Origin: a virus
DNA: 64,000 bases
Reading direction: 5' to 3' (one strand)
IMG/VR virus record: IMGVR_UViG_3300016471_000988
Location: 1 to 64,000 of that record
The notes under the pieces were generated by a model that saw only the letters and a program-made list of their open reading frames with translations, searched no databases and was not told the origin of the DNA. Numbering within the stretch: the first letter of the stretch is position 1; each line of letters opens with the position of its first letter. Shown piece by piece: positions 9,392-57,966 of this stretch. Both the position numbers and the translations under genes were made by a program.

Positions 9392-9474
9392 AATAAGTGT
9401 TATTTCTCCTTGTTTTATTTCGACCTGCAGAATATATCTGCAATATTATTCAGGCTTAAGCCTCGACACCAAAA
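9392..9474 (-). promoter_or_regulatory. structured gp22-gp23 intergenic leader with SD AAGGAG
   Basis: Palindrome AGGCTTAAGCCT (9452-9463), hairpin TGCAGA-N5-TCTGCA (9426-9442), SD at 9406-9411. Confidence 0.55.
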
Positions 9475-10347: not shown

Positions 10348-10680
10348 TTAGAAAAGCTTCACTCCTTTGTTTGCCGCGATGCGACGAGCTAATTTAGTCT
10401 CCATAATTTGCTTTAAATATTTATGGGCCTCGGCATAATTTTTTTCATTAATTGCCTTTAAAAATCTTACAACAAAAGCTTTCTCTTGCATACTTTTATA
10501 TTTATTCTCTTCTTGCTCGAAATTCCCGGCTTTTTTTAGACATTTTTTACAAGGGACCATGTTACCCTCTTCATCTTCATAACATTCCTCGTCCGCACCA
10601 ATAGCAGATTTTGTCTGTAATTTGTCGGCCAAGCTCGGGCTTGCACAAGGGGTGGTGACTTTTACAGCGATAGGTATCAT
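10348..10680 (-). CDS. small prohead core protein (gp67-like C-terminal helix), with a nested start at 10491
   Basis: FLKAINEKNYAEAHKYLKQIMETKLARRI is helical and lies between gp21 and gp22. TAATG coupling at 10680; AATAAATA 7 nt before internal ATG 10491. Confidence 0.55.
   Translation of the reverse strand: MIPIAVKVTTPCASPSLADKLQTKSAIGADEECYEDEEGNMVPCKKCLKKAGNFEQEENKYKSMQEKAFVVRFLKAINEKNYAEAHKYLKQIMETKLARRIAANKGVKLF
10499..10506 (-). promoter_or_regulatory. late promoter AATAAATA, internal to ORF 10348-10680
   Basis: 7 nt before in-frame ATG 10491. Confidence 0.6.
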
Positions 10681-34526: not shown

Positions 34527-35129
34527 ATGAACAAATTTGTCAAGTTATATGAATCCGCAATAAGCAGATTTACAAGAGGCGGGTTTTTAACTGGTGATTT
34601 AGTCAAATTTACTGATAATGCATTAAGAGATGAGTTTTTTGGTCAGCAAGCACCTAACTACCTAGCTAAAGTAAAATCCTTTATCGATAGTGGGTTAAAC
34701 ATGCGTGTTAGTGCTGTCAAACCAGTAAGACCCTCGACACAACCTGGAAACATACAGAACGAAGCTAGCGGATTTTTAATAGACATTACGTTAGAATTAG
34801 CACCAGGTCTCTATAAAGATTTTATAACATTGCCCGCACATGTCTTACAACATATTGACACTGGCACCAATCTTGCGCCTGTTCCAGATAGCTTGAAAAA
34901 AACAGACAATGTCAACATTAAACCAAAAGAAGTAGACATTAAAAGTGAAGATGAATTAATGCTATCACCACACAGACAAACAGGTACTAGCGACCAGGGA
35001 GATAAAAAAGATTCAGAAGGAGATAGAACACTTAACAATTTTAATACTGCAATACCTAGCTCACCTGCTGTTGGAGAAAAAAGCCCTGCTGTAGAGAAAG
35101 GTACTGCAAGATATCTACCTAAGCAGTAA
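34527..35129 (+). CDS. hypothetical late protein (candidate head-internal protein)
   Basis: 200 aa, starts MNKFVKLYES; charged low-complexity C-terminus. Confidence 0.6.
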   Translation: MNKFVKLYESAISRFTRGGFLTGDLVKFTDNALRDEFFGQQAPNYLAKVKSFIDSGLNMRVSAVKPVRPSTQPGNIQNEASGFLIDITLELAPGLYKDFITLPAHVLQHIDTGTNLAPVPDSLKKTDNVNIKPKEVDIKSEDELMLSPHRQTGTSDQGDKKDSEGDRTLNNFNTAIPSSPAVGEKSPAVEKGTARYLPKQ

Positions 35130-47562: not shown

Positions 47563-48147
47563 TTACAGCAATACCATTTTTAGCTGATGATATGCAAATT
47601 CAAACCCACATTCCATTTCACCAGCATCTCTATCATTATAATCAATACCTTCCAAGGCTATTGGAAAGGCACGAATATAGTCAAACCGTACGGTTTTTTT
47701 GTTATATTCGTCCAAACCATATACGCTAATATCAGTCATGTATTCATTAGCAAAGGAATCTGATACCGGTGCTGTGGGGTCAAATATACTTTGAGTTGAG
47801 TTATTGAAGACTTCTAACCATTTAAATATGACCCAGTAGTTATTAAACAAATTATCCACAGTGAAATCAATCTTTAAATGTGGAAAAGAAGGCCTATTAT
47901 ATGATGTCACTTTAAAAGTTTGGCCAGCGTAAGGTATTTGTACAGGTGGTATTTCTATGGGCGGTGCAACTGCACCGTATATACTAAATTGAATAGAATC
48001 AAAATTAACAGAAGTATTTCTTCGAGCTATATCTTTGACTTGGTCTCTTAATACATTAGGTATTGTCAAGACACAAATAAATTTATCTTTACGCTGTTTG
48101 TTTAGCGGGCTCTGAAAAATTGGTTCCTTGTTTGTCGGGGTAGGCAT
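47563..48147 (-). CDS. gp3: tail completion / sheath stabiliser
   Basis: FSIYGAVAPPIEIP, LKIDFTVDN..NY..IFKW, FDYIRAFPIALEGIDY, FAYHQL. Confidence 0.65.
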   Translation of the reverse strand: MPTPTNKEPIFQSPLNKQRKDKFICVLTIPNVLRDQVKDIARRNTSVNFDSIQFSIYGAVAPPIEIPPVQIPYAGQTFKVTSYNRPSFPHLKIDFTVDNLFNNYWVIFKWLEVFNNSTQSIFDPTAPVSDSFANEYMTDISVYGLDEYNKKTVRFDYIRAFPIALEGIDYNDRDAGEMECGFEFAYHQLKMVLL

Positions 48148-48151
48148 ATAT

Positions 48152-48159
48152 TATTTATA
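48152..48159 (-). promoter_or_regulatory. late promoter TATAAATA
   Basis: 4 nt before ATG 48147. Confidence 0.75.
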
Positions 48160-49861
48160 TCTTGTCTTTCTCTCCAGGTAATCTCCACCCCTGTGCCTTT
48201 AATTGATCTATTTCATCTAGCGCTGGTTCATCAGTAAACATTACAGGCAATACACTCGATGCCTCTGTATCTTTTTCGTTAGTATAGATGCTTAACGGGC
48301 TTATAACACCTCTCAAGCCATAGTCAAGAGGCTTTATGACAAGAGGACGATCGCAGTCATCAAGCTTAACTACATCATAATACCGGGTACAAATTTCATT
48401 TTCTAAAATAATTAAAGCCCACACCATAGCCATAACGCGATCATCCCAGCTATCGGATCCCGGTCTCGCGCCCCATGTATTGTTAGGGAACCTAATAAAA
48501 TTCTTGAACTCCTGTAAAGTGTGCCTATCACGCATAACAACACTTTTGAGCTCATTAACCCAATAGCGCATATTCATAATACCCCTATACTTTGTGTTAG
48601 TATGAGAGAGAATGCCTACTCTTTTATATTCTGTCTTATCTCCTGCTTTAGCTCCCCACGAAACAATATTTTCATATCCATGAGTAAATTTGAGCTGCTC
48701 TACTACTTGTGCACCCATGCTATTCCGCTCTATACATACTGGTGGACGGCCCCACTGATTTAAAATTTCTAATAGCTTAGTAGTAAATTGAAAAGGTATA
48801 GTAGTCCGTGTATGATACACAGCTACTTGCTCGATGTTTGTTAGATCTGTAATATCAAGTATTTGTGCGACACTCGCAGCTTCGCCAACCCCCTCGCTTA
48901 TATCAACACCTACAGTGTATAACCGATTTTCTTTTGGTTCTTCAAAAACTGTGTATTTACCTTCATCAAATACATATTCAGGCTCTCTAATTCCGCGTAA
49001 CAACTTATGAAAAAGCTCCTCATTAATAGTACTCTCACCTCCCTGTAGAAACTCATTACCGAACTCCTGTGCAAATATTTCTGCACTACCTAGGGTACGT
49101 ATTGTATCTTCCTTCCACTTTTCATCACGACCAGGTATCTCCCACCAGTCTATTCGCTCAGCTTTCCAATTATTTTCTCCTTGTAGTGCACCTTGATATA
49201 GCCTGTAAAAAAGATTATCTGTTCCATTGGGTGTACTCGCTATAAAAATTTTTGATTTTTTTGAACTAGATATAATTGGGTAGACTGATTCCCAGAATTT
49301 CTCTACAATATGATTATCTATAAATGCTAGCTCATCCAATATAGTAACGTTTACGGATTCTCCTCTACCAGCATCGCTACTAGTTGTACTAATACCTATA
49401 CTACTGCCGTTTGTTAATGTCATGCTTGTTTGTCCGTACTCGACGACCCCTGGCTTTAAATAGTTTGGAAGTTGCTCGTACGCGAGTCTTACTCGTTTAA
49501 AAATATTTTTTGCTGTTTGCTCTTTATTTGCAACGATCAAAATTCTTTGATCTTCATTAAAACATGCGTTCCATAAACAATAAATGGTCATCATAGTTGT
49601 TTTACCAGCCTGTCGGCTAGATAATAATATTACGAAGCGATTATCTCTTAAATCCCTAAGTACCCTTTTTTGGCAAGAAAAAAGATTAATTTTTTCCTTA
49701 CCTCTATCTAGGTTTATAATAGTAAAATAATTTTCAGCGAAGTGAATAAGGTTTTTTTTACATTTTTTTAATTCAATCACCATTTCCGGGGTATATTCGA
49801 ATTTCGTTTCAACCGTCGGGAGGTTTTGATTACCAAGATAATATTTTTCTTTATCTACCAC
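48155..49861 (-). CDS. gp17: terminase large subunit
   Basis: SRQAGKTT (Walker A), LDELAF, STPNG, QEFGNEF, VGVDISEG, DDRVMA. Start reassigned to GTG 49861, 5 nt after GATAAATA. Confidence 0.97.
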   Translation of the reverse strand: MVDKEKYYLGNQNLPTVETKFEYTPEMVIELKKCKKNLIHFAENYFTIINLDRGKEKINLFSCQKRVLRDLRDNRFVILLSSRQAGKTTMMTIYCLWNACFNEDQRILIVANKEQTAKNIFKRVRLAYEQLPNYLKPGVVEYGQTSMTLTNGSSIGISTTSSDAGRGESVNVTILDELAFIDNHIVEKFWESVYPIISSSKKSKIFIASTPNGTDNLFYRLYQGALQGENNWKAERIDWWEIPGRDEKWKEDTIRTLGSAEIFAQEFGNEFLQGGESTINEELFHKLLRGIREPEYVFDEGKYTVFEEPKENRLYTVGVDISEGVGEAASVAQILDITDLTNIEQVAVYHTRTTIPFQFTTKLLEILNQWGRPPVCIERNSMGAQVVEQLKFTHGYENIVSWGAKAGDKTEYKRVGILSHTNTKYRGIMNMRYWVNELKSVVMRDRHTLQEFKNFIRFPNNTWGARPGSDSWDDRVMAMVWALIILENEICTRYYDVVKLDDCDRPLVIKPLDYGLRGVISPLSIYTNEKDTEASSVLPVMFTDEPALDEIDQLKAQGWRLPGEKDKI

Positions 49862-49866
49862 TTTAT

Positions 49867-49887
49867 TATTTATCAGAAACATAAATA
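49867..49887. promoter_or_regulatory. back-to-back late promoters (GATAAATA minus 49867-49874; CATAAATA plus 49880-49887)
   Basis: Each is 5 nt from a start codon (GTG 49861, ATG 49893). Confidence 0.75.
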
Positions 49888-49892
49888 CATAT

Positions 49893-50837
49893 ATGACGCG
49901 CAAAAGAAGCATCTTAGATATTGCCAACGTTTATTGCGAAATGAAGTCTAAAGAAGCTGAAGCTAAAGCCCCTCAATCCACAGAAGTCGTTGAGGAAAAA
50001 GTGGTTAAAAAACTTGAAACTTTTCCTAAAGCAACTGACAAAAAGATCAACACAAAAAAGACAACAGCAATTGGTTCGGATACAAAAGCATTTTTTCATA
50101 AAAATTCCGGTCCAGAAGCGGCCGAAGGATTCAATCCTAATATAATCGATCCAAAGACTGCTAAGACTGGAAAAAAAGAAAATCACTACCAACCACAAAA
50201 ATTTTCTTCAGCCCTTGAAAAAACGGAAACGACTAGTATAAATAATAACATGAGCAACAAATCTATTTTTGATAAACTTTATGAAGATGTAATGAAGGAC
50301 GACGCCCTTGATCTCGGCATTCAGGCTGGCCCAGAGGGCGATGCCGCAGATAAGACCGACGATCTCGGTGGTGGTGAAGAGTCTAGCGATGTAACACTAA
50401 CTCTTCCTCGTGATGTTGCTCAAAAACTTCATGATCTTCTAGTGGATGTACTTGGTGCTGATGAAGAGCCCGCTTCTGATGAGGATGCTGGTGCTGATGA
50501 TTTAGGCCTGAAGTCTGATGAAGATGAACAAAGCAAGGCTGAGAAGGAAGATAAGAAAGACGAAGATAAGAAGGATGAAGATCAAGAAGAAGTAGCCGGT
50601 GAGGCTACAGAGCTTGAAGAGCTTCCTGACAGCAAGGGTCTTTCCCTAACAGGTAAGAATAACAAGGTCCCGGGTAAGCTCGGCCATGCTAAAGGCGGTA
50701 AAGCTTCCGGTGACGTCAAGGGCGTAACAGTAGATGGTAAGCCTTCTGCACTTCCTGACAGCAAAGGTCATTCCTTGACAAGCAAGAATAACAAGGTTAA
50801 TGCCCCTGGCTACAAGGCCGGTGACTTCTTTAAATAA
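49893..50837 (+). CDS. highly charged late protein (candidate prohead core/internal protein) with nested in-frame start at 50250
   Basis: Acidic centre, repeated basic C-terminus; C-ending codon bias after 50250. Confidence 0.7.
   Translation: MTRKRSILDIANVYCEMKSKEAEAKAPQSTEVVEEKVVKKLETFPKATDKKINTKKTTAIGSDTKAFFHKNSGPEAAEGFNPNIIDPKTAKTGKKENHYQPQKFSSALEKTETTSINNNMSNKSIFDKLYEDVMKDDALDLGIQAGPEGDAADKTDDLGGGEESSDVTLTLPRDVAQKLHDLLVDVLGADEEPASDEDAGADDLGLKSDEDEQSKAEKEDKKDEDKKDEDQEEVAGEATELEELPDSKGLSLTGKNNKVPGKLGHAKGGKASGDVKGVTVDGKPSALPDSKGHSLTSKNNKVNAPGYKAGDFFK
50237..50244 (+). promoter_or_regulatory. intragenic late promoter TATAAATA
   Basis: Exact motif 5 nt before in-frame ATG 50250. Confidence 0.75.
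50622..50797 (+). repeat. 47-bp imperfect direct repeat (LPDSKGxSLTxKNNKV x2)
   Basis: Copies at 50622-50668 and 50751-50797. Confidence 0.9.
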
Positions 50838-50855: not shown

Positions 50856-50886
50856 AAAAAAGCCGCCATATGGCGGCTTTTTTTTT
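50856..50886 (+). terminator. intrinsic terminator (perfect palindrome)
   Basis: AAAAAAGCCGCC-ATAT-GGCGGC followed by T9. Confidence 0.92.
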
Positions 50887-50893
50887 ATAAATA
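50886..50893 (+). promoter_or_regulatory. late promoter TATAAATA
   Basis: Shares the last T of the terminator; 4 nt before ATG 50898. Confidence 0.75.
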
Positions 50894-50897
50894 ACGT

Positions 50898-51317
50898 ATG
50901 AGTATGTTCGCTCGATTGTACACAAAGCAATTAAACGAAGAAATTCATTCTATAAATGAGTTCTCCACTTGGAATCAGGGACTCTTAACAACTACTATTG
51001 GACCTAACTTTTTTAAAGCATCAGGCATGAAACCCACACAAAGACATAGACAACACATTCCAAAAGACCCAGGATTTAGAAAGCATGCACAAACTGTGCC
51101 AGATATGCACAAAATAGATCCAAAATCATTACAAATGTTAGATGACTTAAAAGTATCTAATTCCGGACGAAAGGTTCTTAGTCAAGATGAACTCCAGAAA
51201 GTTTGTACACAATATGGGGTCTCTCAACTTAATCCTTCGGCGCCAAAAAAACTAGGCAATACAGGTATTCTCTTAAAATTTGACCCCAACGTCAGGGGGT
51301 ATGTGTTAGAAAAATGA
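50898..51317 (+). CDS. hypothetical late protein
   Basis: 139 aa, starts MSMFARLYTKQLNEE. Confidence 0.6.
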   Translation: MSMFARLYTKQLNEEIHSINEFSTWNQGLLTTTIGPNFFKASGMKPTQRHRQHIPKDPGFRKHAQTVPDMHKIDPKSLQMLDDLKVSNSGRKVLSQDELQKVCTQYGVSQLNPSAPKKLGNTGILLKFDPNVRGYVLEK

Positions 51318-53720: not shown

Positions 53721-54140
53721 ATGAGTATGTTTGAAAAGCGATTTTTAAGTATTTTAGAAGCAGATGATAGTGAAGCAGCAGCGCCACAGCCTGAAGTCTC
53801 TGATGCTCAAGCTATGCAGTCACAACTAGATACGGGCACTGATCCAAAAGCATTAGACGCACAAACACCACCGCCTGGTGTAGATCAGGCGATAGGCGCA
53901 CACAACGCAGCTCAAAAAAAGGTATTGTCAGGGTGGATAGATAGAATAGCTGAATTTGTAGGCTTCTTGAATGGTGTAGATGGCAATAGCGTGCAGTCAC
54001 AGCTTGCTGCAAGCAGCTGCGATACAATGTTCGAAAAAATCTCTACAAGTGAAAAGAAGCGCATCGCACGTGTTGCAATGGAATTAAGTTCTTTTAATGA
54101 ATCACTAAAAGGCTATTTAATTTCGAATGACGATCGCTAA
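53721..54140 (+). CDS. hypothetical late protein (candidate head-internal protein)
   Basis: 139 aa, starts MSMFEKRFLSILEA. Confidence 0.65.
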   Translation: MSMFEKRFLSILEADDSEAAAPQPEVSDAQAMQSQLDTGTDPKALDAQTPPPGVDQAIGAHNAAQKKVLSGWIDRIAEFVGFLNGVDGNSVQSQLAASSCDTMFEKISTSEKKRIARVAMELSSFNESLKGYLISNDDR

Positions 54141-56866: not shown

Positions 56867-57241
56867 TTATTGGGCCGTTTGGGACGCTTCACTTGTATAT
56901 TTAGGCTTTTGCGTGTAATACGGGCTTTTTTCTGGCTTATTATTAATACCGCGTTGAATAAGATATTTGATAATAACTTCAATGCTATCCGTTTGAATAT
57001 TGTAGTTCTTATTAAAAAGCACACCGCCATCGTTTAGCTCGAACATAATATCACCATTAAATTCTTTATTAGTAAAACATGTAATAAAAACTGACGAGCC
57101 GCCTGGGTCGACTAAAACAGTCCATCGCCGAGGATCATGAATACCGTAACCATTAAACATTTTTAAAACGATAAAACCATTATCGCGCAATCTCTTTACA
57201 AAATACCCTGGTGTCTTAATTTTATTTTTTGGTGTATTCAT
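56867..57241 (-). CDS. hypothetical protein
   Basis: 124 aa ORF coupled to gp45. Confidence 0.65.
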   Translation of the reverse strand: MNTPKNKIKTPGYFVKRLRDNGFIVLKMFNGYGIHDPRRWTVLVDPGGSSVFITCFTNKEFNGDIMFELNDGGVLFNKNYNIQTDSIEVIIKYLIQRGINNKPEKSPYYTQKPKYTSEASQTAQ

Positions 57242-57966
57242 TTTACAAGAGACGATGCTATATATTTTGTTTTTACGATAGAGTCAGCAGTTTGAAACAC
57301 TACAATGCCTATCTTAGGATTTATCGTACATTCTAACTGCTTCACTCTCACACCGCTAATTATTCTAATAAGCTCAAAGTTCAAGCATAAACTCTGTAGA
57401 GGTGTGCCACTATATTCACACAAAGGTATGGACATACTGTCAACATTATGCCGGGCTTTGTCGGTTAAATCTCCAATAATCTTACCATTTTCCGAATACA
57501 AATAAAGCTTATTGCTTTCTGTGGTAAAGGTGCTACCTCGGAGTAATTCTAAAAGGGTTTTATACTGTAAAGTAAAAGTAATAGGAAAATCTAATGCACC
57601 GAGCTTCTCTACATTAATCTTAGGCTTGGTTACAATACCATCTTCTAGCAGATGATATTTAAAACGAATCTCCGTACCTGAATAGCTAATATTATTCTCA
57701 TTAACAGTAAATTTAAAACTATCTCCTGCAATACAATCAAACGCTTTTATAATTTTTTTAAGATCAGCAATATTTAAGTCTTTAGGTGTTTTGGTATCGG
57801 TTTCTGTTTTATATGTTGAGTGTAATATAACTGAAGAGTCAGATGTACAAACAACACTAGACAGTTCTTCTGGCGTTACTGTGATGACGCAGCTATCATT
57901 AATTTTACTTAAGGGTGATAGAAAATGATTAAGGAATAATTTTTTATCCAATACGTCTATATTCAC
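57238..57966 (-). CDS. gp45: sliding clamp
   Basis: 242 aa with clamp-like alternating pattern (LNIADLKKIIKAF, IRFKYHL, FTL..TLLELLRGS); replication context. Confidence 0.8.
   Translation of the reverse strand: MNIDVLDKKLFLNHFLSPLSKINDSCVITVTPEELSSVVCTSDSSVILHSTYKTETDTKTPKDLNIADLKKIIKAFDCIAGDSFKFTVNENNISYSGTEIRFKYHLLEDGIVTKPKINVEKLGALDFPITFTLQYKTLLELLRGSTFTTESNKLYLYSENGKIIGDLTDKARHNVDSMSIPLCEYSGTPLQSLCLNFELIRIISGVRVKQLECTINPKIGIVVFQTADSIVKTKYIASSLVK

Follow-up and report, generated by a model that had tools for sequence, protein, structure and literature searches.

We analyzed a window of 64,000 nucleotides (nt), positions 1 to 64,000 of the 126,790-bp IMG/VR record IMGVR_UViG_3300016471_000988 (G+C content, 36%; the full record is labeled G000), whose source is an uncultured freshwater phage, a distant T4-like myovirus. 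Beside the large terminase gene (gp17) of this phage lies a plus-strand open reading frame (ORF) of 314 amino acids (aa), preceded by a box that resembles a late promoter (P1) and stands 5 nt before the start codon, ATG 49893. We found that the codons AGT ATA AAT AAT AAC ATG inside this ORF contain an exact TATAAATA box (P2), read as (AG)T ATA AAT A(AT) and encoding Ser-Ile-Asn-Asn, which stands 5 nt before an in-frame ATG at 50250. This is the same geometry as that of P1 and ATG 49893, as a sequence-only reading of this stretch had stated. The explanation that we consider likely is a nested late gene, in which one frame with two late promoters would specify two co-terminal proteins, of 314 and 195 aa, and would end at a shared terminator. 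The features of the locus are listed in Table 1.

Conservation of the inner box and of both starts

A box of this kind can be buried in a gene because just one of its three reading frames is stop-free and the 5-nt spacer sets the ATG in that frame. One frame of TATAAATA holds TAA, a second reads TAT AAA TA(A/G), and the sole stop-free frame is xxT ATA AAT Axx. The window contains 14 copies of the word against 14.15 expected, so it is not over-represented, and the box at 50237 is the only box-plus-ATG with a long upstream open frame (136 codons). By a rough estimate, the chance of finding an in-frame box and ATG in one genome is ~0.2.

A scan of metagenome contigs and two of viral contigs for relatives of the 314-aa ORF yielded about 60 distinct versions spanning 70% to ~36% identity, nearly all from freshwater samples, with lake samples of the Ga0194129/Ga0194133, Ga0214917-23, and Ga0172362-67 series as sources. 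A spacer of exactly 5 nt separates NATAAATA from the internal ATG in 58 of the 60 distinct relatives; the exceptions are L017, with a spacer of 11, and L067, with no box close to the ATG. Counting codons back from this ATG, codon -4 is ATA in 58/58 sequences and codon -3 is AAT in 58/58, and the box is kept at these synonymous sites despite synonymous divergence (dS) above 1. Codon -2 is AAT in 43 sequences and ACT in 15, an Asn-to-Thr change that retains the A ending the box. Codon -5, whose last base is the first base of the box, encodes at least eight different residues and ends mostly in T (T 45, A 11, C 1, G 1), and codon -1 varies freely. Other sites in the gene behave differently. A conserved Ile five residues downstream is ATT 40 times and ATA 10 times, the codons of the adjacent conserved Asp, Leu, Tyr, Glu, and Val all vary, other invariant Ile columns mix ATT, ATA, and ATC, and among 13 closer sequences synonymous variation was found in 77 of 91 invariant-residue columns.

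The same pattern is seen in the proteins. I116, N117, and M120 are among just 17 invariant columns in a 24-sequence alignment, within a linker that is otherwise variable, and residues -4 and -3 are Ile-Asn in 191 and Leu-Asn in 17 of 218 family proteins (208 together). The Leu-Asn variants would retain a TAAATA core if the Leu codon is TTA or CTA. In the 58 sequences there are no 3-nt insertions or deletions (indels) between box and ATG, and indels are frequent immediately to either side. These alignments indicate that the inner box is constrained as DNA; a box kept by 58 of 60 distinct relatives cannot be put down to chance.

Both start codons appear to be real. Among nine diverse members of the family, the 119 N-terminal codons had a median pairwise ratio of nonsynonymous to synonymous divergence (dN/dS, or omega) of 0.14 and the remaining codons one of 0.135, with dS > 1 in all pairs compared. 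This purifying selection argues that the N-terminal part is translated and selected and thus that the long form is real. M1 and M120 are both invariant in the 24-sequence alignment. An upstream stop in homologues, which the sequence-only reading had linked to two ordinary genes, was not the rule, as all relatives but two have 88 or more open codons upstream: L108 (Ga0169931_10235411, 1514 bp) has a 1-nt frameshift in the N-terminal part, and L081 (OGVP01004459.1, 1854 bp) has an unrelated N terminus joined just past the inner start and is probably a chimeric assembly. At the P1 position, the relatives have T/A/C/G-ATAAATA, with spacers of mostly 5 to 7 nt.

Two further sets of orthologues bear on the inner start. 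Three to four contigs (L126-L129) of larger phages, up to 242 kb, encode a short form only, and in L126-L128 it lies at the syntenic position between gp17 and the gp14-like gene. These proteins are ~207 aa long and begin MSNKSLFEKLFEEVM, with merely 5 to 10 open codons upstream, which indicates that Met120 is a genuine start. At the other extreme are L131 (1501-3075) and L132, on IMG/VR contigs of 80 and 57 kb, in which the N-terminal part is 335 aa long, AATAAATA stands 5 nt before the first ATG, and TATAAATA stands 5 nt before the inner ATG. This extended N-terminal part has an EF-hand-like loop (DLNKDGKLSEYE) and a basic stretch rich in Lys, Ala, and Gly. Across the family, then, the N-terminal part ranges from absent to ~335 aa, and the short-only and extended orthologues together argue for an autonomous C-terminal module to which the N-terminal part is a variable add-on. 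A fusion or an N-terminal extension that retained the ancestral promoter and start is the likely origin. Taken with the omega values of ~0.14, the conservation of the box supports the proposal of the sequence-only reading that one locus may encode both a 314-aa and a 195-aa isoform.

Table 1. Coordinates of the proposed nested gene and of neighboring features in the window
Feature	Position	Strand	Remarks
Long ORF	49893..50837 (including stop codon)	+	314 aa, 33.8 kDa, isoelectric point (pI) 4.9; intact in ~60 distinct relatives
P1, late-promoter-like box CATAAATA	49880..49887	+	Spacer CATAT, 5 nt to ATG 49893
N-terminal part exclusive to the long isoform	49893..50249	+	119 aa, basic, pI 9.4
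P2, exact TATAAATA inside the coding frame	50237..50244	+	Spacer ATAAC, 5 nt to in-frame ATG 50250
Short in-frame ORF	50250..50837	+	195 aa, 20.6 kDa, pI 4.4; begins MSNKSIFDKLYE
Predicted amphipathic helix, residues 125-138	50265..50306	+	N terminus of the short isoform, with L-Y-E at 129-131
Best-predicted helix, residues 173-187	50409..50453	+	DVAQKLHDLL..., with conserved VTLTLPR before it; pLDDT ~80
Gly/Lys-rich basic tail	50622..50798	+	LPDSKGxSLTxKNNKV twice (residues 244-259 and 287-302)
Intrinsic terminator	50862..50886	+	GCCGCC / ATAT / GGCGGC plus nine T
gp17 box GATAAATA	49867..49874	-	5 nt upstream of probable GTG start 49861
Large terminase gene gp17	48155-49861	-	Followed by a tube-like gene, sheath, and more tail genes on the same strand
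gp21-like protease, gp22-like coiled-coil protein, and gp23 capsid genes	7.9-11.4 kb

The gp17 protein has at most 38% identity to that of any GenBank phage, with Sinorhizobium phiM9 as top match. On the plus strand the 314-aa ORF is followed by a 139-aa ORF and a gp14-like head-closure gene, and the order of tube gene, gp17, nested gene, 139-aa ORF, and gp14-like gene is maintained in the relatives. Wider searches enlarged the family: a protein search of 5.8 billion sequences returned 183 homologues, almost all of which are unnamed and 270 to 320 aa long, and a profile search returned 390 cluster representatives. A megablast search of the locus against GenBank phages gave no match, and tblastn with three queries found no homologue in 50,697 GenBank phage records.

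Genes and boxes are tightly packed on both sides of gp17. Its N terminus aligns with relatives from GTG 49861, and the relatives keep TTATTTAT(C) at the position of the gp17 box. The gp17 box GATAAATA and P1 CATAAATA lie back to back (49859-49895), with the boxes 5 nt apart and the start codons 31 nt apart; mutual exclusion of polymerases at the two might depress the long isoform. At the other end, the gp17 stop codon is inside the TATAAATA of the next gene (48152-48159; 48147-48159, minus strand), in the sequence ..AAG ATA TAA ATA ATA T ATG. With such packing, a frame change at a junction of the gp17 type would fuse neighboring genes, and the nested gene may plausibly have arisen in this way.

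Proposed promoter, terminator, and alternative explanations

The T4 late promoter is an 8-bp box that lies about one helical turn before the transcription start, with its first base at -13, where A is the main variant (PMC2988020). Since the T4 box spans -13 to -6 and +1 is the sixth base after it, +1 would fall on the first base of the ATG when the spacer is 5 nt long. We infer that the inner box is a gp55-type late promoter and that its transcript would be leaderless, with +1 on ATG 50250. The record encodes the expected partners: T4 gp55 matches G000 at 73031-73270 (minus strand; E value, 1.7e-7; 36% identity over residues 39-118), and a clamp-like (gp45) gene lies at 57238-57966 (phrog_223). 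In addition, the boxes are placed in a strongly non-random way, as approximately 25 to 30 genes of the record start 4 to 7 nt after an NATAAATA box. In the nested gene as we propose it, transcription from P1 would begin at ATG 49893 or immediately beside it and yield the message for the 314-aa form. P2, spelled by the xxT-ATA-AAT-Axx codons of the long form, would direct a shorter transcript for the 195-aa form, beginning with the A of ATG 50250. Both transcripts would stop at the common terminator.

That terminator was shown by folding (-18.3 kcal/mol; z score, -3.56), a terminator scan having missed it. A hairpin and T-run are present downstream of the nested gene in 27/27 relatives tested, with differing stem sequences. 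The conserved terminator makes the locus a closed unit of P1, N-terminal part, P2, C-terminal part, and terminator. The final T of the terminator doubles as the first base of the TATAAATA of the next gene (50886-50893), 4 nt before ATG 50898. Because no other promoter fits behind the terminator, the box at 50886 argues for a promoter role of this sequence and for leaderless mRNAs.

The major capsid gene is not of the type with a box at its start. In the stretch 9392-9450 (minus strand), its ATG is preceded by a hairpin and, at a distance of 14 nt, by AAGGAG, and there is no late box close to it. In this phage, therefore, late genes that have a leader coexist with late genes that apparently have none. 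Between the gp21-like protease and gp22-like genes, a 110-aa ORF (10348-10680, minus strand) may have a second nested start, with AATAAATA (10506-10499) 7 nt before an in-frame ATG at 10491 that would give a 47-aa product. L124, the sole full-length relative of this ORF found, has AATAAGTA at the same spacing, too few relatives to judge.

Several observations weigh against a nested gene with an inner promoter. The evidence for two products is comparative throughout. The reading frame itself accounts for some of the strictness of the 5-nt spacing, as indels of 1 or 2 nt would break the long form, so only the absence of 3-nt indels is informative. A distant clade (L135-L138, ~28% identity) retains the fused frame and the inner Met without a late box, the sequence before that Met being AAT TTC AGA AGC AAC ACT ATG; the box is thus not indispensable, and this clade may produce only the long form. 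The short-only orthologues carry a variant, GTAAATA, 5 nt before the ATG, plus TATAAAAA ~28 nt upstream, either of which may be the promoter there, and GAG or GGAG occurs ~14 nt before the internal ATG in roughly half of the relatives. Codon usage is a further point, as a highly expressed short form would be expected to show a synonymous bias toward C-ending codons. The sequence-only reading had described a switch to C-ending codons downstream of 50250, and the raw frequency of C at third codon positions does rise from 0.17 in the N-terminal half to 0.215 in the C-terminal half. However, the two halves of the gene in this window share a C/(C+T) of 0.34 at pyrimidine-ending codons (0.49 in the capsid gene), so the apparent switch in the window reflects amino-acid composition. 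A modest shift holds family-wide, with pooled C/(C+T) values of 0.22 for the N-terminal and 0.33 for the C-terminal part in 24 members, which are non-independent sequences.

The strongest alternative, which we regard as unlikely, is that both proteins are made from a single P1 mRNA on which ribosomes also initiate at AUG 50250, with the conserved A/U-rich UAUAAAUAAU enhancing initiation at the RNA level instead of serving as a promoter. An A/U-rich, unstructured stretch does precede the internal AUG, and the purine motif noted above would suit such a role in the relatives that have it. There is also a precedent in the T4 RefSeq record, which annotates 'internal translation initiation of gene 21' for a shorter gp21, and the AAGGAG of the phage's own major capsid gene lies at the same distance of 14 nt. 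What separates the two explanations is the exactness of the conserved sequence: the late-promoter word is kept at the exact promoter distance, including the otherwise minority Ile codon ATA, whereas an A/U-rich enhancer would accept ATT. The same word and spacing also head genes directly behind terminators, where a promoter is required, and the window has no sequence resembling a Shine-Dalgarno motif before 50250.

A scheme that we hold to be distinctly less probable is that only the long protein is initiated and that the short piece, if any, arises by prohead-protease cleavage, for example after L-Y-E 131, with the box kept as a promoter relic or DNA-binding site. It would draw on the conserved [LIV]-x-E motifs VVE at residues 32-34, LYE at 129-131, and LEE at 241-243, on the gp21-type protease that the phage encodes, and on the distant clade that keeps the fusion without a box. 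Met120, however, is invariant and is the sole start in the syntenic orthologues, and a relic would not remain invariant at dS > 1 in 58 lineages. We find it scarcely credible that the loss of a stop codon, or a misassembly, joined two ordinary neighboring genes and left a functionless in-frame layout. Short-only orthologues do exist, and stop codons often lie inside the next gene's box, as at gp17, which makes fusion by a frame change easy. Yet the fused frame recurs in ~60 contigs that are independent of one another and in 218 proteins of the family, and purifying selection spans the junction. An old fusion may well be the origin of an arrangement that has been maintained since.

Protein properties and possible role

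On the nested-gene explanation, the relative amounts of the two forms would depend on the two promoters. Consensus and spacing are stricter in P2 than in the intergenic P1, whose first base (-13) is C in the window and which shares sequence there with the promoter of the divergent terminase gene. From this we infer that P2 is the stronger promoter, and it is plausible that the short form would be the abundant one.

The protein has a strongly acidic central region (residues 132-240; pI 4.05). An AlphaFold model built with the 24-sequence alignment (predicted local distance difference test score [pLDDT], 53; predicted template modeling score [pTM], 0.14) contains three helices only, at residues 7-24, 125-138, and 173-187, and predicts that the remainder is mostly disordered. 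Each isoform would thus begin with a short helix. In the helix of the short form, F126, L129, and E131 are invariant in the family (24-sequence alignment), and the L-Y-E at residues 10-12 of this form is a possible gp21-type cleavage motif. The corresponding sequence in the long-form N terminus is V-Y-E in relatives and Y-C-E in the window, and in the phage's capsid protein V-N-E/A seems to take the place of the L-T-E after which T4 gp23 is cleaved.

The sequence-only reading had likened the restart at 50250 to the beginnings of other late ORFs, and such N termini are indeed present: MSMFARLYTKQLNEE at 50898, MSMFEKRFLSILE at 53721, and MNKFVKLYES at 34527. Counted over the genes, hydrophobic-x-Glu N termini, a loose motif, occur in 16 of 25 late box-led genes versus 39 of 125 others (P = 0.003). 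Beyond the window, a late gene (G000 80506-81039, minus strand) begins MNRKRDLANLGEVYGES and closely resembles the N terminus of the long isoform, both in the window and in relatives (MNRKRDLIQIEEAY in L056). This resemblance suggests an N-terminal tag shared among several late proteins.

Searches for a known family were negative. Pfam and PHROGs gave no family for the protein or its parts, Pfam gave none for 24 family members, a profile search against PDB sequences found no match, and the ESM Atlas held the protein's own model (pLDDT 0.40) with unnamed neighbors and no function. Three specific identities were considered and rejected. A small terminase (T4 gp16), suggested by the adjacency to gp17, had an hhalign probability of 0.5%, PF11053 is absent from the record, and the model is mostly disordered. 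The gp22 scaffold is encoded by a separate gp22-like coiled-coil gene in its canonical place between the protease and capsid genes. An internal duplication relating the two halves had an hhalign probability of 0.2%.

Comparison with T4 head proteins offers a loose guide. T4 IPII and IPIII begin MKTYQEFIAE and the short form begins MSNKSIFDKLYE, with an N terminus that is likewise short, predicted to be helical, and ended by hydrophobic-x-Glu, but there is no sequence homology between the short form and IPI, IPII, or IPIII, and the likeness of the motif is loose. The T4 internal proteins are also basic, whereas the short form is acidic and in this respect nearer to the acidic tract of T4 gp67, which likewise has a helix and then an acidic run. 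As a guess, and one that we rate as possible but short of likely, the short acidic form would be abundant in the prohead core or inside the head, where the long form would bring in a variable basic N-terminal cargo along with it. A bolder and more doubtful version is that late box, 5 nt, and ATG together form a portable promoter-start cassette of a loading system, in which the inner cassette would yield the abundant short acidic core protein, the minority long form would take freely evolving cargo (absent, ~100, or ~335 aa) into the prohead, and the gp21-type protease would free the cargo at L-Y-E. If true, such a system would be an independently evolved phage counterpart of herpesvirus UL26/UL26.5, operating on leaderless mRNAs.

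Comparison with known nested genes

The nesting principle itself is already known. T4 gene 17 is likewise a late morphogenesis gene with in-frame co-terminal products (gp17 and three shorter proteins), annotated in RefSeq as 'internal transcription and in-frame translation of gene 17', and T4 also has late boxes within the coding sequences of genes 68 and 22. In the T4 stretch examined, however, exact TATAAATA boxes lie 14 to 134 nt before the ATGs that they serve, which leaves room for a leader, whereas the 5 nt found here predict a leaderless mRNA. Also in that stretch, no exact box precedes the internal gene 17 starts, and the protein described here is unrelated to terminase.

In the herpesvirus UL26/UL26.5 pair, the scaffold is made from its own in-frame nested transcript, is about tenfold more abundant, and shares its C terminus with the longer product (PMC11565193). 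The logic is alike in that a variable N-terminal part is placed on a common C-terminal module. In contrast, the N-terminal part of UL26 is a protease, while here it is a predicted disordered basic segment whose role in the head is conjectural, and, unlike the herpesviruses, this phage has separate genes for a gp21-like protease and a gp22-like scaffold. The C and Nu3 genes of phage lambda are a translational version of a nested capsid-assembly gene. Set against these systems, what appears to be new is a promoter that would lie wholly within two frozen codons and abut the start codon without a leader, in an arrangement conserved across a large uncultured family with no assigned function.

On the explanation favored here, the locus would be a very clean example from nature of codons that spell a promoter, with Ile-Asn frozen down to its synonymous sites across several hundred proteins because these two residues encode a -10-type box. 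Gene callers would then miss the second product family-wide, as nearly all database entries are the long form. The inner box also serves as an internal control for the wider proposal that late mRNAs of these freshwater T4-like phages are leaderless, since it is itself coding and so is not merely a leader signal of an upstream operon. The strength of the promoters would set the ratio of two related proteins, as in the herpesvirus scaffold genes, and the variable N-terminal part suggests a route by which such phages may evolve new virion cargo.

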